64,000 nt of DNA from a virus. Taxonomy: Duplodnaviria > Caudoviricetes. A program made the position numbers and the translations under genes. Below the pieces are notes generated by a model, which had not been told where the DNA came from, did no database searches, and was given only the letters and a program-made list of their open reading frames with translations. Location: IMG/VR virus record IMGVR_UViG_3300029297_000002, positions 5,586 through 69,585 of that record; one strand, given 5' to 3'. Positions 4,561 through 48,983 of the stretch are shown piece after piece; position 1 is the first letter of the stretch, and every line of letters starts with the position of its first letter.

Positions 4561-5892
4561 ATGGCTAACGCAGAATTATCAGATAAAGAGCTCGTCACGC
4601 AAAAGCTGGAAAGCATATTTATGACCAGCAAAAAAAGCGTGCAGGAGTATGTTAGGGAAATCGAGCGCAGATGTCGATTCCAATCTTCATATCGTCACCT
4701 ACAGAACGGTACGGTGTTGGATGACCGTGGCCGTTTGATAGACATTTATGATGCTTGTGTTCAGCAAGACGCTCATCTGCGGGGTGTTATGGAAACTTTG
4801 TTCTCTCAGATTGTTGGAGAGCGGTTTATGATGGCAAGTCAAAATGAGAAAGGGAAATATACCAAAGACATAGCTGCTACCAGAAAAATCCAGAATACTG
4901 AATTTTTGAAGATTATACGTGGTATAGCAGAATCAAAACTATATGGCTATACAGGATTAGAGTTTTTGGTTAATCCAGAAGCAGAACGCGGTGGTCTTCA
5001 TGTCAACTACGTGGAACGTCGTAATATCTTGGCAGACCAAAGAAAAATTGTGCAGCGTCAGGGTATTTGGATGCCACAGTGGAGTTTTGATGACCCTAAA
5101 TATTCTGACCACTATGTACTTATTAACAGTGGTGAATTGGGGCTGTTCTCGGCTGTCGCTCCTTTGATTTTGGCTAAAAAATTCACTTTTGCCAATTATG
5201 TCAACTTTTCTCACACATACGGTCAGCCTATTATTCATGGCAAAACTGAGTCTGAAAACACTGTTGACCGCAAACGAATGGCGAATGATATTGCGAGTGC
5301 GGCTCAAAATAAGGTAATTGTTACCGGTCTTAATGATGAGGTTGACATAAAAACATTCACTATGTCGAACTCTGAGCATGTGTTCACTGGGCTTATTTCA
5401 ATTGTGGATAAAGATGTCTCCAACCTTATTCTTGGATCAGAGTCTATGGCGGGAGCAACCCAGTCGTATGTAGGCGCAACCAGAGCACATGAGAATATCT
5501 TCAGAGACCGCATAGAGGTGTATCGCGATTACATAGAACTTGTAATGAACGAGACCGTAATACCTCGTTTGGTTCGTTTGGGCTATTTACCGGATGGACT
5601 GGAGTTCAAATATTCTAAGCGCATTGAGATGTCCGATGAAGACCGCATACGCCTCTTTCAGAACCTCACTACATCATGGGAAATGGATCCAGAAACAATT
5701 GAGCAAGAGTTTGGTGTGAAGGTTAAACGACAGCTCAACGTGATGGACGGCATGGCTGGTAGCCCGACTGGTGGTGGGGGTGACGCGGGGTATAGCCGTA
5801 CAGCTACCAGACATTTAACCGATGAAGAATATTTTCGCAGATACGGTCATGCCCGTGAAACGCAAAATTTTCTTCGGGAGAGGGGGAAATAG
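4561..5892 (+). CDS. Portal protein (DUF935/Mu gp29-like)
   Basis: QDAHLRG, ESKLYGYT, FSHTYGQP..GK, VSNLILG, ETVIPRLVRLG; first gene of the head cluster, followed by gpF. Confidence 0.85.
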   Translation: MANAELSDKELVTQKLESIFMTSKKSVQEYVREIERRCRFQSSYRHLQNGTVLDDRGRLIDIYDACVQQDAHLRGVMETLFSQIVGERFMMASQNEKGKYTKDIAATRKIQNTEFLKIIRGIAESKLYGYTGLEFLVNPEAERGGLHVNYVERRNILADQRKIVQRQGIWMPQWSFDDPKYSDHYVLINSGELGLFSAVAPLILAKKFTFANYVNFSHTYGQPIIHGKTESENTVDRKRMANDIASAAQNKVIVTGLNDEVDIKTFTMSNSEHVFTGLISIVDKDVSNLILGSESMAGATQSYVGATRAHENIFRDRIEVYRDYIELVMNETVIPRLVRLGYLPDGLEFKYSKRIEMSDEDRIRLFQNLTTSWEMDPETIEQEFGVKVKRQLNVMDGMAGSPTGGGGDAGYSRTATRHLTDEEYFRRYGHARETQNFLRERGK

Positions 5893-5909
5893 GTCCGGCC
5901 CCCCTCTCC
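5865..5909 (+). promoter_or_regulatory. Putative programmed -1 ribosomal frameshift signal (portal to gpF)
   Basis: In-frame heptamer A AAT TTT (5865-5871), 5-nt spacer, then a perfect 10-bp stem GGAGAGGGGG (5877-5886)/CCCCCTCTCC (5900-5909). The -1 frame is the gpF frame, open from 5859 to 6782. Confidence 0.7.
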
Positions 5910-5963
5910 AATGTAGTAGCCTTACGACAACCTGATGACAACAAGGACCGGCACGAAGAGGAA

Positions 5964-6782
5964 GTGGCAATACTTATTCCTCTATTCCACGATTTCGTCA
6001 TTAGTGTTATCCAACATGAGGATGAATGGGGGTCCTTAGAGGCGTTGATGGAAGCTCGTGCTGATATTGCCATTAGAAGAGCGTGTGCCGGTTTTGGGGT
6101 TGACTTTGAGGAAGCGTTACGTCTCATACGCAATGCTGACGGTCTTGACAATGAGCAAATAGCTCAGCGGAATATCATTTTGTCCGCAGTTGATAACCTG
6201 GTTGACTTTGCGGTTGTGGAAGAATATCACATGGCTGATGATATGGCAGAGTTAGAAGAAGCACTAACGGAAGAGGAAGCAGAAGATGTGGAAGATGAAG
6301 ATTGGTTCAATTTCTATCTGCCAGTCTTTTCTAAATTCCATGACCAATACATGCGTACAGAAAACATGGACATAGAATATGCCATGATTGTCGCTGCCTA
6401 TTTATCGACGATTAGAAACGACACGACTCTAATGTACATGACGCAAGGTGATGAGCGAGTACGTCCGTGGCATCTTCAGTATGAAGGATTTACTGCTCCT
6501 AAGTCAATGTTTCCAGCATGGCTTATTCCCCCTATTGAACATAATTGTCGCTGTTATTTGGTAGAAGACACGTCAACAGTTATAGCTTCTATTCAAGCAT
6601 CTGCGATACCAGAGATGCCTGATTGGTTTAATCGTACATTCAAAGAAAGCGTGGCTCTTGGTGGTCGCATTTTCTCTGATGAGCACCCATATTTTCAAGT
6701 TGATGAGCGGCATGTTGGCCGTCTCAATGCCATAGCAAATCGTCTCAAAGCAAAGTATTTGAAAGATGGCGAATGTGAATAA
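5964..6782 (+). CDS. Minor head morphogenesis protein (Mu gpF/SPP1 gp7 family), possibly made as a portal fusion
   Basis: YMTQGDERVRPWH and PPIEHNCRCY motifs. Only a GTG start is available at 5964, and the frame is open back to 5859. Confidence 0.85.
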   Translation: MAILIPLFHDFVISVIQHEDEWGSLEALMEARADIAIRRACAGFGVDFEEALRLIRNADGLDNEQIAQRNIILSAVDNLVDFAVVEEYHMADDMAELEEALTEEEAEDVEDEDWFNFYLPVFSKFHDQYMRTENMDIEYAMIVAAYLSTIRNDTTLMYMTQGDERVRPWHLQYEGFTAPKSMFPAWLIPPIEHNCRCYLVEDTSTVIASIQASAIPEMPDWFNRTFKESVALGGRIFSDEHPYFQVDERHVGRLNAIANRLKAKYLKDGECE

Positions 6783-8077: not shown

Positions 8078-9343
8078 ATGGATGCAGAAAATTTGAAATA
8101 TGTAGTTGGAAAGGCTGAGGAAGGCCAACCGGCTATCATTCGCTTTTTTTCAGCCGTAGATGAGTACAGTGTTCGCTGCTTCAATGATGAGTTCTTGTGG
8201 TTGCAAGACTATGTGAAACCTTCAAAGATTATTGTGATGATCAATTCTGAAGGAGGCTCAGTGTTGTACGGAATGAGCACGTTCTCAGTTATTCGCTCTT
8301 GTCCTATTGAAGTCGATTGTGTAATAGAAGGCATTGCAGCTTCGATGGCCAGCGTTATCTGGGCTGCTGGTGATAACCTTTATATGCACGATTATTCATT
8401 GTTGATGATTCACAATCCTTTCAATTCAAAGGTTGAGGATGATGACCCATCGGTAAAGCAAACCGTTGAAGCTTTCCGCTCACAATTGGAAACTATTTAT
8501 ACTAAACGGTTTGGACTTTCCAAAGACAAGGTTGCGGAAATTATGAACGGCGAGGGAGATGCGGACGGTACTTTCTTCAGTGCTAAAGATGCTGTGAAAG
8601 CTGGATTCCTGCCGTCAGAGAATGTCATCAAGACCTCTAAAAAGGTGCGTGACAAAGTGAAAAACGAGATGATAGGCATTGATAGCGCAGCTGAAATGCG
8701 CAATATCATGTCTGCCGTATCTGCTGAAGTGGACGAAAATAAACTTATCGAGGCAATTACTGCTATTCGTAATCAGAAAGATAATTATTCACCAATCCAA
8801 GAAAACAAAATGGAAAACAACGAAAAAAACAATTTCGACGCCATTTCAGCACAACTTGGACTCGCTAAGGACACTCAGGCCGCAGCGATTGAAGCTCGCA
8901 TTGCTGAGTTGATCAATGCAGAAGCAACACTCAAGGAAACTCAGGGTGAGCTTACTGCCACGAAGATCAAACTCGAAGGCAAGGAAGCCGACCTCGCTAA
9001 CGTCAAAAGCGAACTGACCGAGACTAAGGCAGCGCTTCAGGCGTACAAGGATGCAGAACAAGCTGCTCTCAAAGCCGAGATTGCAACGGTTATCGATGAT
9101 GCAATCAAGGCAGGTAAAATTGAGGCTTCTGCAAAAGATGCTTGGACAAAGATGGCTGAGTCTGACTTTGCCACTGTCAAGAGCACTCTTGCATCAATCC
9201 AGGCTCGTGAAGTAATCACAGAGGTAATCGCTAAAGACCCTGCGAATGAAGGCAAAATCGAGGAGACGTTGAAAGACGTTGATGCTCAGATGCAAGCCAA
9301 AATCAAGGAGAAACTTGGCGAGGTAAAATTTGAAACATTTTAA
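8078..9343 (+). CDS. ClpP-family prohead protease fused to coiled-coil scaffold
   Basis: INSEGGSV, GIAASMASVI (catalytic Ser), LMIHNP (His), FSAKDAVKAGF; Ala/Glu/Lys-rich helical C-terminal half. Confidence 0.9.
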   Translation: MDAENLKYVVGKAEEGQPAIIRFFSAVDEYSVRCFNDEFLWLQDYVKPSKIIVMINSEGGSVLYGMSTFSVIRSCPIEVDCVIEGIAASMASVIWAAGDNLYMHDYSLLMIHNPFNSKVEDDDPSVKQTVEAFRSQLETIYTKRFGLSKDKVAEIMNGEGDADGTFFSAKDAVKAGFLPSENVIKTSKKVRDKVKNEMIGIDSAAEMRNIMSAVSAEVDENKLIEAITAIRNQKDNYSPIQENKMENNEKNNFDAISAQLGLAKDTQAAAIEARIAELINAEATLKETQGELTATKIKLEGKEADLANVKSELTETKAALQAYKDAEQAALKAEIATVIDDAIKAGKIEASAKDAWTKMAESDFATVKSTLASIQAREVITEVIAKDPANEGKIEETLKDVDAQMQAKIKEKLGEVKFETF

Positions 9344-12827: not shown

Positions 12828-12860
12828 TATTGAGTATCAACTTTAATTTATAAATGAATC

Positions 12861-13256
12861 ATGGAAGAAGAAAAAACTCTTGAGCTTCAGACCATCGAAG
12901 AACTCGATCCCAAGCTCCGTGCAGCCGTTGAAAAGAAGGTTGCAGACCTGAAAGCAAATAACCCCAAAGCAAAGATTTTTCCGCTTATGGTGGACGGTGA
13001 TCCGGACGATGAAAAGGACGTATATATCGGCTACTTCTGCCAGCCTTCGTTCATCACGTTCTCCAAGTACATGACTTTCGCACAGAAAGATCAGGCTTCG
13101 GCTATGCGTCAGCTTGCGCGTGACTGTTTCTTGGATGGCGACAAGGAACTCATTGATGACGACTCTCTGTTCCTCTTCGGTCTTATGGGTCAGCTGAACA
13201 ACATCATTCAGATGCGCGGCGGTCGTGTCATAAATTTATCGAAACCTGGGAAGTAA
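12861..13256 (+). CDS. Tail assembly chaperone (lambda gpG equivalent)
   Basis: Between tube and tape measure genes, with a slippery site near its 3' end. Confidence 0.8.
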   Translation: MEEEKTLELQTIEELDPKLRAAVEKKVADLKANNPKAKIFPLMVDGDPDDEKDVYIGYFCQPSFITFSKYMTFAQKDQASAMRQLARDCFLDGDKELIDDDSLFLFGLMGQLNNIIQMRGGRVINLSKPGK

Positions 13257-13423
13257 GAGAGGACGACTATTTCCGTCAAAAGATAATTCTCTTGCGACAT
13301 TACTTTCCAGGTGTTAATATCGATGACCTTGATGAAGAAGATTTTGCCAGGCTGGTGTGCGATGCGGAGTGGATGCACAGTCAAATGGTCATCACCAGAC
13401 ACGCAAATGCTTTAGGATTGTAA
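13232..13423 (+). CDS. -1 frameshift extension of tail chaperone (gpGT equivalent, about 187-aa fusion)
   Basis: In-frame A AAT TTA (13232-13238). The -1 frame reads FIETWEVREDDYFRQKIILLRHYFPGVNIDDLDEEDFARLVCDAEWMHSQMVITRHANALGL* with no early start codon of its own. Downstream stem 13244-13256/13300-13312. Confidence 0.8.
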   Translation, partial: KFIETWEVREDDYFRQKIILLRHYFPGVNIDDLDEEDFARLVCDAEWMHSQMVITRHANALGL

Positions 13424-13530: not shown

Positions 13531-16500
13531 ATGACCGGACAAACATATCAAGTCAATTATATTGTAAATGTTGATGCAGCCAACGCTCAATCCGCAATCA
13601 ATTCGTTTAAGCGGGCCGTTGCATCAATGGATAAGGCTACGAAACCAATAACGGATTTACAGCGTAAAGTCCGTGGTCTCGTGGAGACTATGAGTGCGCT
13701 TAATCGGGGTAAATACTCGGTTAAGATTGATACTCGTCCAGCCACTCAAAAGATTGGCAAGCTGATTCGCGCTTTGCAAATGGCAAAAGTCGAAGTGCAA
13801 CAGCTTAATGCAATGGGTGTGACTTTAGGAGGTGTTGGCAATAAGAAAAGAACAGCATCTCGTACTGCCGTTACCGCCGCACCTATTGGCGGTTCCAGTT
13901 CGCGTACAAGGACAGCGCCTTCACGCTCATCCAGTACGACCACAGCAGCTACAAGGCGTTACGCAACCTCAGTTATGCGACACCCAACTAATCTTGGATA
14001 TAAGCTTTGGGGTCCTACTCCGCTTCCTAATAATGGCGGTATGGCTATTGATATGCTCAAGGGTATGGGTATTGCCTATGGTATCGCAGGAGCTGGTATG
14101 CTGGTTTCTGATGTCGTAAATCAGGCTTCTGAGTATGACAATGCAATGAAGACTGTTGAGAACATTTTGAAATCTCACGACACTGCCGAAAATTTCGCTG
14201 GCAGGTTTGCGCAAATGACTCAGGTAGTCCGTAATGTCGGCATGAAGACTAAGTTCAAAGTTACAGAAGTTGCAGATGCCGCTAAGTTTCTTGCAATGGC
14301 CGGGTTCAATGCTGATGCTATTCAGCAAGCAATTAGTCCTATTGCAGACATTGCATTGGTCGGTGATACCGAGCTTGGTAAAACTGCGGACTTGGTCACA
14401 AACATTATGACCGCTTACAACATTGCGCCAAATCGGATGCGTAATGCAGCGGACATTATGACCAACACATTCACCATGTCAAACACTACTTTGACGGAGA
14501 TTGCTGAAGCTTATAAATATGCAGCATCACTTCTGTCTGCTGGTGATGTGTCTTTTGAAGAGGCTACTGCTGCTATTGGTGTGTTAGGAGACGCTGGCAT
14601 AAAGGGCTCTCAGGCTGGTACAACCATGCGTACCATTATGGCGAACATTGCTAATCCAACTAAAAAGCAGCTTGAAGGTTGGGAAGGTATTGGCGTTAGT
14701 TTGACAGACAAAAAAGGTAAGAGAAAAGACATTCTTCAGATATTCCAAGAACTTAATACAAAGAATCTGGACGTTGATGCTTTCTACCGTATATTTCATA
14801 AAACAGCAGCTTCTGGAGCAGTGGCTCTTGCTGCTCATGTAGATAAATGGGAAAAGGTTTATTTGGAAAACTTTTTGGCCGGTGGGATGACACGCCGTTT
14901 GGCAGAAGAAAAACAAAACACATTTCAAGGACTATGGGCACAACTCGTTTCTGTGTTCACAGATCAAGGCGTAACTGCATTTAATGGTGTGCAGGGGGCC
15001 TTACGTGGTTGGATGAAGATGGCAATCAATTGGATGGATCCGAACAAGAACCCTGATGCACAGAAGGTGTTTAAGGAAGTGGCTAATAGTCTGATGGAGT
15101 TTATTCAGATTTTGATAGATGCTTCTAAATGGTTTGTTTGGTTCTTTGATAAATTTGGTGGCCTCGTCAAGACATGGGCTAAGTTTCAGTTGATGATTTG
15201 GCCCGTCGTCAAAGCTGTAACGGCTCTTAGGAGTGTATTTCTTGGACTCTTGGGTTTAAGGAAGGTAGGCAGTGTACTTATTGGGCTGTCTGGTGTATTT
15301 GGCAATCTTAATAAGAGGTTACTTGTTTTAGGCACTACTTTAGGGCAAGGTGGGTGGTTTAAGCAAAGATTGGGTAATGTAGTAACTGCTATTGGAAACA
15401 CAGTCCCTGTAGCAGCACCTGGCAGTATGTTAAATACGGGTCAGTTATCTGCATTTGGAGTTCCTATGGGTATAGCGGGGTTTGCTCCATTGTCATATAA
15501 ACAGTACATGAAAGCAGCTAAAGGCTTGGATTTGTCCAGACCTCATGCTTCAACCAGTGGCTATTATCTTAACAGAATAGACAATCTTGGAAGAGAGGCA
15601 GAAGTAGCTGCATGGAACTCTGGGGTGTATCAGGCTCGCCAAGCAGAAGATGCAGCTGCACTAAAGCGATATAAGCAGAATCAAAAGACGTTCAACAAGC
15701 GTGTTCGCAACATGCAAATCAAGAATGGTCTTAAAGGGTTTGGCAAAATGGGAGTTGGTGCAGCCGTTATGGGTCTTGGTATGCACCAGATGACAAAAGA
15801 AAATGCAAATGGCTTGGATGTTGCTTCTGGAGGACTCTTTGCTGCGGCAGGAATGGCTGCAATGGTTGGAGGCCCTATTGGGTGGATAGCCGCCGCAGGT
15901 TTGGCTCTTGGTGGATTAGGTGCATCTTTAGCCAGTTTCAATCAGAACCTTGATGCTCTTTCTGGATTTGTTAATGATTTCTCTAATAGCCATCAACTTC
16001 TTGACGGCGCTTTATTGAATGGCAATACTCGTACTGAGCGTTATCTTGAATTTGTGTGGCGTAAGAATTACGATATAAACGACCTAATTCAGCGCCGTGT
16101 TGAATTGATGACAGAGTTGCTGGGCATTGAGACACCAAATGCGACTACTACAAAAGATGTTGGCAATGAAATGTATAAAACTATGTATGAGAAGTTTTAT
16201 GCAGCTGACTCTATGTGGGGTAGCCGTGGTGCAGCTTCTCGTGCAGCCGAACTCTTTAATAAATACGGTCAGGAATTTGGGTTATCAGTTCGTAATTACA
16301 ATGGCGATTGGTATTATCAAGATGCTAATGGAAAGTATATTAGGTTTGCTAACCCTAAAGGTTCATCCGACACCAACGATGCTGTTATGTATGATGTGGC
16401 TGCGGCAATGGAACTGCTACATGGACAGTATCGTTCAAAAATTATGGACGAGAATCAGCATCATTTGGCTCAGATGCTTTATGGAAAAGCTACTGTTGAA

Positions 16501-17769
16501 GACGCGAAGAATTGGCGTGATACGTTTGCCGCCACATACGGTCCCGCTTCATGGACAACTCTGATTCGCCCGGATCAGTGGAATGAAGATACTGATGTCG
16601 CTAAATATTGGTCTGGAGAAGACATTGCTAAGTCATATATGGGTGCTCAGCTTCTTTGGAAATCAATGTACCAAATGGTTGAGGCTCAAAATGCTATTGC
16701 CGATTTCAAAGAGAAATTAGCCGCTGGTAATTTGACAGAAAATGATGTAGTTCGGGCATTGCGATGGGGTGACTATGATGTTCTCGGTCAGACATTGGCT
16801 GACTATAATCCAAATGATGTTACCAGTTGGTTTCGTAATATGGGCTATGCTGGCGATGGTATATGGCGTGACCCTTCAGGTCGTAAAACGCCAGAAGTTA
16901 TGGCTCAAACCGCTGCCGGTCAGATGCAACGTCTTTTGGAATCTATCCAGAAGCTTGGGCTTGAAGCAGATCCATCCACTCAGGCACTCCAGACATACGC
17001 CAATACATTGCTTACATTAGCTCAATCGTTTATGGGCTCTAATGAGGCACTGTCTGGTTCACATGATGGAGAAATAAAAGAACTGAATGGTCAGAAATGG
17101 CGTTGGAACGCGACCACTAAACAATGGGAACTTATCAATGACAATAATCAGCCAGCTCAGATTTCACAGGGATTGGTGGATATGTCTAACAATATGAATA
17201 CGTTGTTGACAGCCGTTCAAAATGTCAATTCACAATGGCCTACTTTATTTCCTACTATTTATCAATCAAATGCAGGTTGGGCTTACAATAACACCAGTCC
17301 TTATAACTGGGGCGATATTACTACAAATGGCATGTTGTTGAATCCTTTGTCAAATTCAAACAACGAGCAACAATTTAGTTGTTGGCCCACATGGAATGGG
17401 AGCAATAACTTGATGACACCTCAGATGAGTTATACGACAACAGGCATTACTATGACTCCTCAGCAGATGGGCAATGCTGTTGCAAAGCCTAATATGCCTG
17501 GAGTACAAACTGGATCTGGGCTTGGTACTAACGGCAAAGATGGGCATACTGGCACTAAATCATCAGATTATAAGTCTAATAAAAAGGAGCGTGCCATTCC
17601 AAAACAGATTAACATCAACATCCAGAATTTGATGAAGGTGGATTCAATTGATATGACCAACGAAAACAATGTTGCAATAATTGAGAAATTAAAAGAAAAA
17701 GTTGCCTACGCACTCTATGAAGCCGCTGCCGACGGAACAATGATGCTAAATGGCCTTTCAAACACATAA
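13531..17769 (+). CDS. Tail tape measure protein (TP901-family core)
   Basis: 1412 aa; EVADAAKFLAMAGF, LGDAGIKGSQAGTTMR; hydrophobic Gly/Ala segments. Confidence 0.93.
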   Translation: MTGQTYQVNYIVNVDAANAQSAINSFKRAVASMDKATKPITDLQRKVRGLVETMSALNRGKYSVKIDTRPATQKIGKLIRALQMAKVEVQQLNAMGVTLGGVGNKKRTASRTAVTAAPIGGSSSRTRTAPSRSSSTTTAATRRYATSVMRHPTNLGYKLWGPTPLPNNGGMAIDMLKGMGIAYGIAGAGMLVSDVVNQASEYDNAMKTVENILKSHDTAENFAGRFAQMTQVVRNVGMKTKFKVTEVADAAKFLAMAGFNADAIQQAISPIADIALVGDTELGKTADLVTNIMTAYNIAPNRMRNAADIMTNTFTMSNTTLTEIAEAYKYAASLLSAGDVSFEEATAAIGVLGDAGIKGSQAGTTMRTIMANIANPTKKQLEGWEGIGVSLTDKKGKRKDILQIFQELNTKNLDVDAFYRIFHKTAASGAVALAAHVDKWEKVYLENFLAGGMTRRLAEEKQNTFQGLWAQLVSVFTDQGVTAFNGVQGALRGWMKMAINWMDPNKNPDAQKVFKEVANSLMEFIQILIDASKWFVWFFDKFGGLVKTWAKFQLMIWPVVKAVTALRSVFLGLLGLRKVGSVLIGLSGVFGNLNKRLLVLGTTLGQGGWFKQRLGNVVTAIGNTVPVAAPGSMLNTGQLSAFGVPMGIAGFAPLSYKQYMKAAKGLDLSRPHASTSGYYLNRIDNLGREAEVAAWNSGVYQARQAEDAAALKRYKQNQKTFNKRVRNMQIKNGLKGFGKMGVGAAVMGLGMHQMTKENANGLDVASGGLFAAAGMAAMVGGPIGWIAAAGLALGGLGASLASFNQNLDALSGFVNDFSNSHQLLDGALLNGNTRTERYLEFVWRKNYDINDLIQRRVELMTELLGIETPNATTTKDVGNEMYKTMYEKFYAADSMWGSRGAASRAAELFNKYGQEFGLSVRNYNGDWYYQDANGKYIRFANPKGSSDTNDAVMYDVAAAMELLHGQYRSKIMDENQHHLAQMLYGKATVEDAKNWRDTFAATYGPASWTTLIRPDQWNEDTDVAKYWSGEDIAKSYMGAQLLWKSMYQMVEAQNAIADFKEKLAAGNLTENDVVRALRWGDYDVLGQTLADYNPNDVTSWFRNMGYAGDGIWRDPSGRKTPEVMAQTAAGQMQRLLESIQKLGLEADPSTQALQTYANTLLTLAQSFMGSNEALSGSHDGEIKELNGQKWRWNATTKQWELINDNNQPAQISQGLVDMSNNMNTLLTAVQNVNSQWPTLFPTIYQSNAGWAYNNTSPYNWGDITTNGMLLNPLSNSNNEQQFSCWPTWNGSNNLMTPQMSYTTTGITMTPQQMGNAVAKPNMPGVQTGSGLGTNGKDGHTGTKSSDYKSNKKERAIPKQININIQNLMKVDSIDMTNENNVAIIEKLKEKVAYALYEAAADGTMMLNGLSNT

Positions 17770-47091: not shown

Positions 47092-47565
47092 ATGATTAGA
47101 AGTAAGGGCATAGTCGAAGTCCATGAGGGCTATGCCGACACCAGCGAGCTTGAAGAGGCTGTGGACATTCTGCCAGATGGAGAATATGGTTATCTCCTGT
47201 TTGACAAGAACAAGAACCGCTCGCTACCTCAGTTGAAGTTTCTTTTTGGGTATTTACTGAAAACTCTAAGTGAAGAGTTAGAAGGCAACCCAGATCCGGA
47301 AGCACTATACAGTTATTTTGAAGAGCTTTATGCTCCGATTCATCGCTGCAAAATCCCAGGAGAGGCAAATGTATTTGAATACTTTGACCTTAAAAACGAA
47401 CCAGCAACTGAGATGGATTATGTTATTGAAAAAATTATCCATCATGCCAAGACAGAATGGGGTATTGACCTGCTTTCCCGCGAAGGGATTAAAGCTGCTG
47501 AAGCAGCAGAACTTTATGCAGGTGCCTATGCTGATACTTGGAAGAATTATCAAAGGAAAGTCTAA
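47092..47565 (+). CDS. Hypothetical protein (possible NinB/Orf-like recombination accessory)
   Basis: Start reassigned to ATG 47092, downstream of the promoter; NRSLPQLKFLFG and EMDYVIEKIIHHA motifs. Confidence 0.5.
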   Translation: MIRSKGIVEVHEGYADTSELEEAVDILPDGEYGYLLFDKNKNRSLPQLKFLFGYLLKTLSEELEGNPDPEALYSYFEELYAPIHRCKIPGEANVFEYFDLKNEPATEMDYVIEKIIHHAKTEWGIDLLSREGIKAAEAAELYAGAYADTWKNYQRKV

Positions 47566-47579
47566 AAGACAATTCTCCC

Positions 47580-48983
47580 ATGATGGAACAAGAAAAAAAA
47601 GCACGTACACTCCATGACGTGTTTGCGGCATCCCAAGAAACATTTGATGACGCAAAGAAAAAGAGTGCAGAAGAGAGCAGCAAACGCGCCTCGTTTTTCC
47701 GTTTTGCCAAAGATGGCACTTATGCTATTCGTATTCTTCCTTTGGCACCAGTTCAAGACCAGGATGGTAACTTCTTACCGTTGGAACGTAAGGGCTATGA
47801 ATATCCGCTTCGTTCTTTGATGCTCAAAATTGAGAACGACAAGAAGCTGGTGAAGGGCAAGCCGTCTATTACCTATGTTACAGTTTGTAACGCCAAGTAT
47901 GCCTTTAAGGAAATCAACGCAGACCTTATTGACACCTATGTTTCCGTGGCATGTGAAAAGTACGCAGACGATGACAAGCTCTGTAAGAAGTTGCGTGAAG
48001 GCAGTTTTTCCGGTGGCTTGAAGTGGGATTCGCGTCGTTGCATGTATATCATCGACCTTGACAATCCCGGCGATGGCATCCAAATCCTCCAGCTTTCTTA
48101 TTCACAGTACAAAGACCTTGAAGAGCGCAAGTTGAACTTGTGGGGCAAACTGAACAAAAACGGAAAGATGGTGCCATGCCCTATTTCTTCTATTGACTCA
48201 GCTTATCCTGTTGAAATCACTCGTAAGACTGAGAATAACAAGCCGGCATACAGTTTCAACATCGACACCGTATCTGATAAGGATGTTCTGGACGAAGCTA
48301 TCCTCCAGCAACTGATTGACATGCCTCGTCTCCCAGAGCAAATTTACCGTTACACTCGTTATCATTTGGAGGCTACTGTTGCTTATCTCAGTCAGCTCGA
48401 TGAGAAGTTTGACATCGATGTGATGAGCGAAGACAAGGTTCAGAACTGTATTGACCAGATCAAGACCTTGCTGCCGGCAGACGATCAGTCTCACTTTACT
48501 CTTGGTGAGGGTAAAGAGGATGAATCTGATAGCGACTCTGCTAATGACATTGATTCTCTGTGGGCTCGTTACGATGCTCTTTGCAATGATGACCTCGATG
48601 ACCAGACTGCTGAAGGACAGGAACTTCGCACTGACATTATGGCTTATATTGAAGCGCATAACCTTGACGTAAAAGTAACTCGTAAGAAATCCAATGAAGA
48701 CATTCTGAATGAAATCGAGGATGAACTTGCCACAGTTGCCAACAATAGAGGTAATGAAGAAGAGGATGAGGAGGAAAAGCCCGATCCTGCACCTAAACGC
48801 CATCAGGCCCCTGTTGAAGAAGAGGAAGACGATGCAGAACCCGCTCAGCCAGCCGATGAGGAAGAGGACGATACGCCAGAACCTGAACGTCCCCGTTCAC
48901 GTCGTGAGCGCAATGATGACACCAACGAACCGGCTGCACGTGCAAGTCGCCGTGGAGCCCGTCCACCTCGTCGTCGTGAGTAA
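47580..48983 (+). CDS. Putative single-stranded DNA-binding protein (T4 gp32-like) with long acidic tail
   Basis: FFRFAKDGTYAIRILP, YPVEITRK; acidic C-terminus; upstream of the nuclease/ATPase pair. Confidence 0.6.
   Translation: MMEQEKKARTLHDVFAASQETFDDAKKKSAEESSKRASFFRFAKDGTYAIRILPLAPVQDQDGNFLPLERKGYEYPLRSLMLKIENDKKLVKGKPSITYVTVCNAKYAFKEINADLIDTYVSVACEKYADDDKLCKKLREGSFSGGLKWDSRRCMYIIDLDNPGDGIQILQLSYSQYKDLEERKLNLWGKLNKNGKMVPCPISSIDSAYPVEITRKTENNKPAYSFNIDTVSDKDVLDEAILQQLIDMPRLPEQIYRYTRYHLEATVAYLSQLDEKFDIDVMSEDKVQNCIDQIKTLLPADDQSHFTLGEGKEDESDSDSANDIDSLWARYDALCNDDLDDQTAEGQELRTDIMAYIEAHNLDVKVTRKKSNEDILNEIEDELATVANNRGNEEEDEEEKPDPAPKRHQAPVEEEEDDAEPAQPADEEEDDTPEPERPRSRRERNDDTNEPAARASRRGARPPRRRE

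Follow-up and report, generated by a model that had tools for sequence, protein, structure and literature searches.

A probable programmed −1 frameshift between the portal and MuF genes of a gut Bacteroides-type phage

Organization of the portal-MuF junction

The window analyzed, a 64,000-nucleotide (64-kb) stretch of DNA, derives from a large gut phage of the Bacteroides type. The closest cultured relative was Bacteroides phage BS-TP1 (PMC12694917), at 80% nucleotide identity. The portal gene was found on the plus strand as a zero-frame ORF at positions 4561 to 5892, encoding 443 aa with the C-terminal end ETQNFLRERGK, and its product matched the Pfam family PF06074 (Portal_Mu) with 153.1 bits against a cutoff of 23.9, spanning profile positions 2 to 336 of 336. 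The 3' end of the gene reads GAA ACG CAA AAT TTT CTT CGG GAG AGG GGG AAA TAG. It includes the slippery heptamer A_AAT_TTT (5865 to 5871, plus strand), which has the canonical X_XXY_YYZ form in the zero frame, with AAU (Asn) as the P-site codon and UUU (Phe) as the A-site codon. Seven codons past the heptamer, the portal frame ends at TAG (5890 to 5892), and this stop lies inside the 13-nt loop (5887 to 5899) of a hairpin at 5877 to 5909, for which a stimulatory role is predicted. The 10-bp stem is formed by GGAGAGGGGG (5877 to 5886), the exact reverse complement of CCCCCTCTCC (5900 to 5909); it is separated from the heptamer by a 5-nt spacer (5872 to 5876), and the hairpin has a minimum free energy of −21.6 kcal/mol.

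In the −1 frame, a TGA at 5856 to 5858 is followed by an open stretch from 5859 to 6782, leaving approximately 303 to 305 codons after the slip. The predicted fusion therefore amounts to 437 + 303 = 740 aa, compared with 443 aa for the portal alone, with a predicted trans-frame junction peptide of ETQNF/SSGEGEIGPAPLSNVVALR. The first codons after the slip (5871 to 5921, plus strand), corresponding to SSGEGEIGPAPLSNVVA, are predicted to form a disordered linker, and the body of the MuF/gpF-like head protein occupies 5922 to 6782 on the plus strand, with helices upstream of any conserved start. The window protein scored 24.4 bits against PF04233 (Phage_Mu_F), for which the gathering cutoff is 29.6, while the same profile matched 40/42 aligned family members at an E value of ≤0.01 (best, 1.4e-10), and gp44 of BS-TP1 carries the annotation Mu protein F-like. 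The coordinates given in the original prediction for the heptamer, the stem, the loop stop, and the open −1 frame were all reproduced on the sequence, and its estimate of a fusion of about 740 aa versus 443 aa agreed with the recount.

Conservation of the heptamer and the downstream hairpin

Related junctions were collected in sets that grew from 37 (first set) to 95 with IMG/VR searches and to 148 with a metagenome search; one extra contig (L044) breaks off 17 nt into the site. In the first set, A_AAT_TTT was present in frame, 3 to 8 codons upstream of the portal stop, in 37/37 sequences, and the in-frame heptamer was likewise found in 95/95 and 148/148 members of the extended sets. Altogether, none of the 149 related junctions extending to the site lacked it. 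Among 61 distinct 88-nt junctions, the sole invariant columns were the seven heptamer bases, three of which are wobble positions, and entropy was 1.0 to 2.0 bits at all 30 positions upstream. The codon preceding AAT differs among relatives (CAA, AAA, ACA, GTA, or GCA), its final base always being A.

The bare motif AAATTTT was not enriched in the window, with 26 matches on both strands versus 33 expected; the case for the site is built on its frame, its position, and its conservation. Across the stop-to-stop ORFs in the window that span 100 codons or more, 86 in-frame X_XXY_YYZ heptamers were counted, and at 5 of them the −1 frame stays open for 60 codons or more. Two of these five belong to spurious ORFs nested within larger genes, and the five also include an A7 run at 47593, whose −1 frame extends for just 75 codons, and the G/GT-type tail-chaperone site of the phage itself, A_AAT_TTA at 13232 to 13238, upstream of a 1412-aa ORF (13531 to 17769). 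The hairpin at the portal site was by far the strongest, the other heptamer sites giving −6.8 to −8.5 kcal/mol. The earlier remark that the portal and chaperone sites have AAATTT in common was correct. The chaperone −1 site is also kept in BS-TP1.

For the 96-nt junction, the predicted folding energy was −31.5 kcal/mol (z = −2.06), with 5/200 shuffles equally stable. A covariance model of the site gave a single match in the window, at 5865 to 5916 with 72.6 bits. In 46/46 distinct junctions a stem-loop was present, with energies between −12 and −25 kcal/mol and its stem beginning roughly 5 nt past the heptamer; the spacer measures 5 nt in most relatives, with a range of about 2 to 7. In an alignment of 45 sequences that was itself fitted to the structure model, 91.9% of the cells were paired and two-sided changes were seen in 8/10 pairs, and a plain MAFFT alignment gave the same trend. 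Two-sided changes occupied 83 cells of the stem compared with 27.1 in shuffles, and the covariation score was 0.503 versus 0.284 in shuffles (reached by 0/500) and at most 0.301 in slid controls. Controls slid by −1 to −3 still paired in 72 to 81% of the cells, and part of the covariation signal arises because the purine/pyrimidine-tract stem tolerates register slips.

A pseudoknot had also been proposed, based on the complementarity of GGTCC (5892 to 5896) to GGACC (5945 to 5949). As a conserved element it was rejected, with 64.5% of the cells pairing in 22 aligned junctions. Only members of the close clade kept the second helix whole, with no variation on either side, and it was broken in all relatives outside that clade; with 2 cells showing two-sided changes, covariation was uninformative. 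Judged from these sequences, the pseudoknot may still form within the close clade, and a canonical −1 frameshift cassette does not require one. Between 5500 and 6300, no intrinsic-terminator-like and no sigma-70-type promoter-like sites were found. No Rfam family matched the hairpin, and the sole match, to ssnA on the minus strand at 5784 to 5813 (14.8 bits against a cutoff of 37.3), was taken as chance.

The MuF frame and alternative routes to its expression

In every complete locus, the MuF frame was −1 relative to the portal and overlapped it. In 10/55 distinct junction regions, the −1 frame begins precisely with the AAA of the heptamer, and in 29/55 it begins no more than 2 codons earlier; in none of the 55 does ATG, GTG, or TTG occur between the start of this frame and the heptamer.

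Alternatively, free MuF could be the sole form produced, arising from independent or coupled initiation; some other pressure would then maintain the heptamer and hairpin, for instance the residues of the portal C terminus, the stability of the mRNA, or re-initiation control. The candidate starts would be GTG 5964; ATA, GTA, or GTG codons overlapping the portal stop (NTAG/NTGA); and a conserved Met at codon 61. GTG 5964 to 5966 (plus strand) is the first ATG/GTG/TTG of the −1 frame in the window and the sole start-like codon before codon 60. It is preceded by AAGAGGAA, but its AGGA-type motif stands just 1 nt away; Bacteroidota are not known to depend on Shine-Dalgarno pairing. The same position is GTA in BS-TP1, and the GTG is absent there from most relatives, while the ATG annotated as the MuF start of BS-TP1 has no counterpart in the window. 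GTG 5964 is probably an internal Val codon.

Across the junctions, some layouts do favor a free protein: a start-like codon precedes helix 1 in 32/55, a GTG overlaps the TGA portal stop (GTGA) in 8/55, as is typical of translational coupling, the codon-61 ATG occurs in 31/37 sequences of the first set, and the distant Flavobacterium phages pippi8-1 and FPSV-S27 have a MuF ATG 4 nt after the portal stop. Against this, the position of the first start-like codon was scattered from codon 7 to codon 61 among the 55 junctions, 23 of which had none before codon 31, and two lineages (L004 and L017) had none before codon 60. A conserved independent gpF start, which the original prediction had named as a finding that would speak against it, was thus not present among the relatives.

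The coding properties of the region point the same way. For codons 15 to 60, pN/pS was 0.10 to 0.32 in 14 pairs, compared with 0.08 to 0.28 for the remaining gene, indicating the same purifying selection on both. Just after the slip, pS was low (0.08 to 0.25, with one pair at 0.48), a depression of synonymous change attributable to the hairpin and dual coding. An AF2 model of MuF from 42 sequences reached a pLDDT of 84.6 and a pTM of 0.84. Residues 1 to 19 had a pLDDT of 33 to 40 and were predicted to be disordered, and helices at 27 to 50 and 54 to 77 had values of 89 to 98. GTG 5964 corresponds to residue 34 and the only conserved Met to residue 62 (codon ∼61); both therefore fall within confidently predicted helices, into which a start at either would cut. 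By these substitution rates, the sequence ahead of the sole conserved Met behaves as a coding region. The model had no fold matches in the PDB at an E value of ≤0.001, so structure gave no functional lead. Protein constraint would moreover explain neither three invariant wobble bases beside fully variable flanks nor the −1 frames whose opening coincides with the heptamer. Exclusive synthesis of free MuF is accordingly an unlikely account, although free MuF could also be made in some phages, given the start-like codons and GTGA overlaps in part of the junctions.

That the frame changes in the transcript, through RNA polymerase slipping on the A3T4 run and without involvement of the ribosome, appears very improbable. 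The site is a homopolymer pair, and slippage of this kind has precedents in some phage and IS genes, but polymerase slippage needs roughly 7 to 9 identical bases, a length far above runs of 3 A and 4 T, and a covarying hairpin at a distance of 5 nt is a signature of ribosomal recoding.

Four protein clusters (P0002 to P0005; 729 to 763 aa) carried PF06074 in one ORF, two of the four also carrying PF04233, and were 35 to 46% identical to the −1 ORF. They are joined between the portal RYGxxR motif and the MuF N terminus, where the window shifts frame. Seen as protein only, these fused forms may be assembly errors. Locus searches of IMG/VR and metagenome contigs returned only relatives with the −1 layout, ≤76% identical, and no in-frame fused locus; the longest ORF was at most about 500 codons in 56 metagenome loci, and the loci L037 to L095 all had the −1 layout. 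In the window and all DNA loci examined, portal and MuF lie in two frames. Sequencing runs were compared as contigs, not raw reads, and contigs from three independent studies spanned 5842 to 5909 with 0 indels and 0 base differences, which disposes of the indel error considered earlier. The RNA-library run X18 gave contigs at 5400 to 5657 and 5912 to 6280 and none across the junction. An artifactual or decayed origin of the offset, through a sequencing or assembly indel or through pseudogenization of a once-fused gene (in which a one-base deletion would yield the present layout), is effectively refuted by the recurrence of the same offset in 149 junctions from many assemblies and a cultured phage, by the base-for-base agreement among studies, and by a downstream frame that is intact and under purifying selection.

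Proposed mechanism, significance, and known systems

The preferred reading is that the hairpin stimulates a programmed −1 frameshift at A_AAT_TTT, which fuses the portal to the gpF/MuF protein; we assign this reading a probability of about 0.88 from the sequence comparisons. The 3' end of the Mu-type portal gene thus very probably holds a conserved −1 ribosomal frameshift cassette. This is the core of the original prediction, which passed every comparative test suggested with it: the heptamer was kept in all junctions reaching the site, the stem showed compensatory changes in 8/10 pairs with a score above 500/500 shuffles, and the −1 offset with overlap was found in 149/149 junctions. The support is comparative throughout.

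On late portal mRNA, a translating ribosome would arrive at A_AAU_UUU with its P site occupied by tRNA-Asn and its A site by tRNA-Phe, while the G/C-rich hairpin of 10 bp, 5 nt downstream, would withstand unwinding. Some ribosomes would then move one base back (AAU UUU to AAA UUU) and go on in the −1 frame. Those that do not slip would end 7 codons on, at the loop UAG, giving the 443-aa portal, whereas slipped ribosomes would produce the fusion of ∼740 aa, composed of portal residues 1 to 437, a disordered linker of ∼19 residues, and the MuF/gpF-like protein. The efficiency of slippage may set the MuF copy number, giving a substoichiometric number of tethered gpF domains. The fusion may become part of the portal dodecamer, leaving MuF attached at the crown on the inner side of the capsid, and the linker might later be cleaved by the prohead protease.

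A stronger version holds that frameshifting is the only route to full-length MuF, so that slip efficiency fixes how many of the 12 portal subunits bear MuF inside the capsid, and that such sites arose repeatedly with different heptamers; the odds on this combination are about even. A relative of the Peternella_1 MuF found in IMG/VR (L102) carries T_TTT_TTC together with a hairpin of −39 kcal/mol, and Peternella_1 itself has an A-run. If a repeated origin is true, this would be a second widely conserved class of tailed-phage frameshift beside tail chaperone G/GT, and if the frameshift is the only route, every MuF molecule would be attached to a portal subunit from its synthesis onward.

For tailed phages, textbook examples of conserved recoding come from tail chaperones and a few capsid genes and, to our knowledge, not from portals. 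Classical −1 frameshifting is known; portal and MuF would be a new gene pair for it. No description of portal-to-MuF frameshifting was found in the freely accessible literature searched, which included passages of PMC12694917, PMC7911831, PMC7302621, PMC8008677, PMC10885494, PMC10367356, and PMC13596623. The word "frameshift" does not occur in the main text of the BS-TP1 paper (PMC12694917), and in that of PRFect (PMC10885494), MuF-like genes appear only with VIP2 toxin fusions, among "false positives." The prediction is directly testable, since BS-TP1 is cultured (PMC12694917). If confirmed, it would provide a way for a low-copy internal head protein to reach the portal vertex at a set stoichiometry without separate recruitment. 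MuF annotation would also need correcting across a large group of abundant gut Bacteroidales phages, where the genes are now given arbitrary internal starts, as in gp44 of BS-TP1. In addition, it would supply a natural, strongly conserved −1 signal for recoding studies in Bacteroidota, which differ from E. coli in their tRNA sets and in how translation is initiated.

Among known systems, G/GT frameshift sites often have no hairpin, whereas a strong covarying one is present at the portal-MuF site. The −1 frameshift of the tail assembly chaperones in lambda and most long-tailed phages, reportedly described by Levin et al. in 1993 and by Xu, Hendrix and Duda in 2004 (works cited in PMC7302621 and PMC8008677), likewise relies on an X_XXY_YYZ heptamer that is conserved toward the end of a late structural gene; a single mRNA gives rise to a short product and to a fusion extended at its C terminus, in a ratio that is presumably fixed. 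There, however, tail genes directly upstream of the tape measure gene are concerned, while the present site lies between the head genes portal and MuF, and the extension is a whole folded protein of 300 aa that is a separate gene in other phages. The bacterial −1 frameshifts of E. coli dnaX (tau/gamma) and the IS3 family similarly combine a heptamer with a downstream stem-loop stimulator. Their sites are A_AAA_AAG with an upstream Shine-Dalgarno-like stimulator, and no such element was evident or conserved in the fully variable 30 nt upstream here. Frameshifting in dnaX truncates the protein, whereas that at the portal-MuF site would lengthen it.

In the Microbacterium phage clusters EA3/EA5/EA8 and EB, portal-MuF genes are reported as in-frame fusions (PMC7302621), and these share with the window the covalent, portal-first join at the same junction, as do P0002 to P0005. 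Such fusions are single uninterrupted ORFs that place MuF on every portal subunit, whereas the window has two frames, from which a mixture of plain portal and fusion is predicted. SPP1 gp7 binds the portal and is present in few copies. Like Mu gpF, it belongs to the same family (PF04233) and is encoded directly after the portal. In SPP1, Mu, and the Flavobacterium phages named above, MuF has its own start and binds non-covalently, whereas here a covalent tether through recoding is predicted.

The portal-MuF junction in the window

The portal ORF of the window (4561..5892; Pfam Portal_Mu, 153 bits) ends with the codons GAA ACG CAA AAT TTT CTT CGG GAG AGG GGG AAA TAG, and because of this codon order A_AAT_TTT at 5865-5871 forms an X_XXY_YYZ slippery heptamer in the portal frame. 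A hairpin starts 5 bases past the heptamer, with perfect pairing of GGAGAGGGGG (5877-5886) with CCCCCTCTCC (5900-5909) and a 13-nt loop containing the portal TAG stop. The -1 frame, which encodes the gpF/gp7-like minor head protein MuF, follows a TGA at 5856-5858 and is then open until 6782, with GTG 5964 as its earliest ATG, GTG, or TTG. All of these coordinates had been placed correctly in the original prediction, and the predicted fusion length of 740 aa (437 + 303) follows from them. An indel error at the junction was dismissed, as contigs of three independent studies cover 5842-5909 with no indel and no base difference. Further downstream, a ClpP-like prohead protease, which might later release MuF, is encoded at 8078..9343.

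The bare heptamer motif was not enriched in the window. Long ORFs of the window contain 86 heptamers in frame, of which only 5 give access to ≥60 open codons in the -1 frame: the portal site, a tail-chaperone site, an A7 run at 47593, and two spurious nested ORFs. Among the five, the hairpin of the portal site is much the strongest, and the combination of features at this site is unique within the window. The A-run (A_AAA_AAA, 47593-47599) is in frame in a stop-to-stop ORF (47282-47617), seven codons ahead of the terminal stop; the -1 frame it opens spans 75 codons only, and its hairpin is weak (-6.8 kcal/mol). The tail-chaperone-type pair (ORF 12858-13256 and -1 ORF 13160-13423) adjoins a 1412-aa tape-measure-sized ORF on the upstream side. 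Its first ORF ends in ATA AAT TTA TCG AAA CCT GGG AAG TAA, so that A_AAT_TTA (13232-13238) is in frame and seven codons ahead of the stop; this heptamer shares AAATTT with the portal site, as had been proposed. The chaperone site is identical in the temperate Bacteroides phage BS-TP1 (PQ571274), a cultured phage whose annotation lists the short ORF alone. This conservation suggests that such a heptamer is the phage's usual slippery site.

Conservation of the heptamer, frame and hairpin

BS-TP1 was the closest record, with 80% nucleotide identity over 4561-6782. It has the heptamer, the hairpin (with one G-C to G-U change), and the -1 offset in common with the window, and in its -1 frame a TAA directly precedes the heptamer AAA. 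Together with the window, BS-TP1, and GenBank MT835494, the 150 related loci fetched (35 + 57 + 2 + 56; some contigs present twice) gave 153 sequences. The junction was absent from four, whose contigs stop short of it, and one further contig (L044) stops 17 nt into the junction with the heptamer still visible. In all of the remaining 148 sequences, A_AAT_TTT is in frame, the portal stop follows 3 to 8 codons later, and MuF is encoded in the -1 frame; L137, L153, and L157, initially removed by a length filter, were verified by visual inspection. Among the relatives, MuF was between 98% and 34% identical to that of the window.

An alignment of 61 distinct 88-nt junctions had no invariant column apart from the seven of the heptamer, and entropy was 1.0 to 2.0 bits at all 30 positions upstream, at every codon position. 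The codon before AAT specifies Gln, Lys, Thr, Val, or Ala, with the third base always A. An invariant heptamer beside variable flanks, with an A-ending codon of changing amino acid, is a pattern that protein constraint cannot produce.

A stem-loop of -12 to -25 kcal/mol starts ~5 nt after the heptamer in each of 46 distinct 58-nt junctions, with stem sequences that vary by lineage (GGAGAG/CTCTCC, GGAAGG/CCTTCC, GGAAGA/TCTTCC, GGACGA/TCGTCC, and GGGAGCGGAA/TTCCGCTCCC). A covariance model built from 25 sequences matched 45 of the 46 sources at E ≤ 1, missing L086, and gave a single match in the window. In the model-fitted alignment, 91.9% of cells were paired and 8 of the 10 pairs had changes on both sides (83 such cells versus 27.1 in shuffles). 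The covariation score was 0.503 versus 0.284 in shuffles (reached by 0/500), with slid controls at ≤0.301, although the structure guided this alignment and purine/pyrimidine arms permit slips of register; with plain MAFFT the trend was the same but weaker. The hairpin was not accounted for by any terminator-like or promoter-like site or by an Rfam family. Comparison at the nucleotide level showed the heptamer, spacer, and covarying hairpin to be conserved and the -1 offset to be obligatory.

Some relatives (L113, L122, L151, L148, L120, and others) lie on metagenome contigs of 300 to 627 kb, far above the ~110-kb phage size, so family members may be integrated prophages; the BS-TP1 paper reports that no BS-TP1 homologues were found in bacterial chromosomes in NCBI (PMC12694917). 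In four loci of one sub-lineage (L065, L123, L124, and L128), the junction is intact and the -1 MuF frame is broken after 110 to 146 codons, with a 380-codon ORF further on in L065; this may reflect an insertion within MuF or a break in the assembly.

The MuF N-terminus and natural fusions

In BS-TP1, the annotation of the MuF-like gene (gp44) begins at an ATG that the window lacks at the equivalent position, and GTA stands in place of the window GTG 5964; hence the two share no MuF start codon. Across 55 distinct junction regions, no start-like codon was found between the -1 frame opening and the heptamer. In 10 regions the opening coincides exactly with the heptamer, and in 29 it lies no more than two codons away. 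The position of the first downstream start-like codon varies between codons 7 and 61, with none before codon 31 in 23 regions, and an ATG at codon 61 is the only one retained across lineages. The stretch before this ATG is clearly coding, judged from substitution patterns, because pN/pS of codons 15 to 60, past the portal stop (0.10 to 0.32 in 14 pairs), resembles that of the rest of the gene (0.08 to 0.28); synonymous change was lowered only across the hairpin.

An AlphaFold2 MuF model from 42 family members (pLDDT 84.6, pTM 0.84) has residues 1 to 19 disordered, plausibly a linker, followed by helices at 27 to 50 and 54 to 77 (pLDDT 89 to 98). Both the window GTG (residue 34) and the conserved Met (residue 62) fall inside these predicted helices. 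As a point against the frameshift reading, some start-like codon precedes helix 1 in 32 of the 55 junctions, and in 8 a GTG overlaps a TGA stop; in some phages, such starts may provide additional free MuF beside the fusion.

A search for longer homologues yielded four protein clusters (729 to 763 aa) encoded by a single ORF, with 35 to 46% identity to the -1 ORF. All four contain PF06074, and two also contain PF04233. Aligned with the two window products, their join lies between the portal RYGxxR motif and the MuF N-terminus, at the frameshift position; two of them (P0002 and P0003) have a long low-complexity linker there, acidic and lysine-rich. In-frame portal-MuF genes are also described for Microbacterium phage clusters EA3/EA5/EA8 and EB (PMC7302621). 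The existence of such genes indicates that the covalent product is a viable architecture. The MuF N-terminus of the -1-layout relatives is start-less yet constrained and folded, and natural in-frame equivalents exist. The more distant Flavobacterium phages pippi8-1 and FPSV-S27 have separate genes without the heptamer, with an ATG four bases past the portal stop, which makes this recoding layout a derived one.

Portal-to-MuF frameshift sites may have arisen separately in a different lineage. The IMG/VR contig L102 encodes a MuF with 33% identity to the MuF of Winogradskyella phage Peternella_1. In its junction region (1896-1970), T_TTT_TTC lies in frame, three codons short of the portal stop, with a -39.4 kcal/mol hairpin 2 nt after; the -1 frame opens one codon ahead of this heptamer and lacks any start-like codon upstream of codon 31. 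In Peternella_1 (L096:2525-2660), the portal end carries CCT AAA AAA AAA AGT; the -1 frame opens directly at this A-run, and MuF is annotated from a GTG 99 nt past the portal stop.

Proposed recoding model and known systems

A real programmed -1 frameshift yielding a portal-MuF fusion is highly probable (nearly nine in ten). This core of the original prediction was supported by the conserved heptamer and offset, the covarying stem, and the start-less MuF. The pseudoknot proposed with it was not, as its helix 2 was paired in 64.5% of cells and broken in all sequences outside the close clade. Ribosomes meeting the hairpin would undergo a tandem slip of tRNA-Asn and tRNA-Phe from AAU UUU to AAA UUU, while the majority, not slipping, would terminate at the UAG in the loop. 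The few 740-aa fusions would co-assemble into the portal ring, with MuF tethered via the ~19-residue linker on the capsid-interior side, and slip efficiency would set the MuF copy number.

No description of portal-to-MuF frameshifting was found in full-text searches of the main articles of open-access papers; the PRFect text covered names MuF-like genes solely in connection with VIP2 toxin fusions (PMC10885494). The site would work like the lambda G/GT tail-chaperone frameshift and the hairpin-stimulated sites of dnaX or IS3. Unlike these, it concerns a new gene pair, and what the slip would add is an entire protein that other phages make from a gene of its own.
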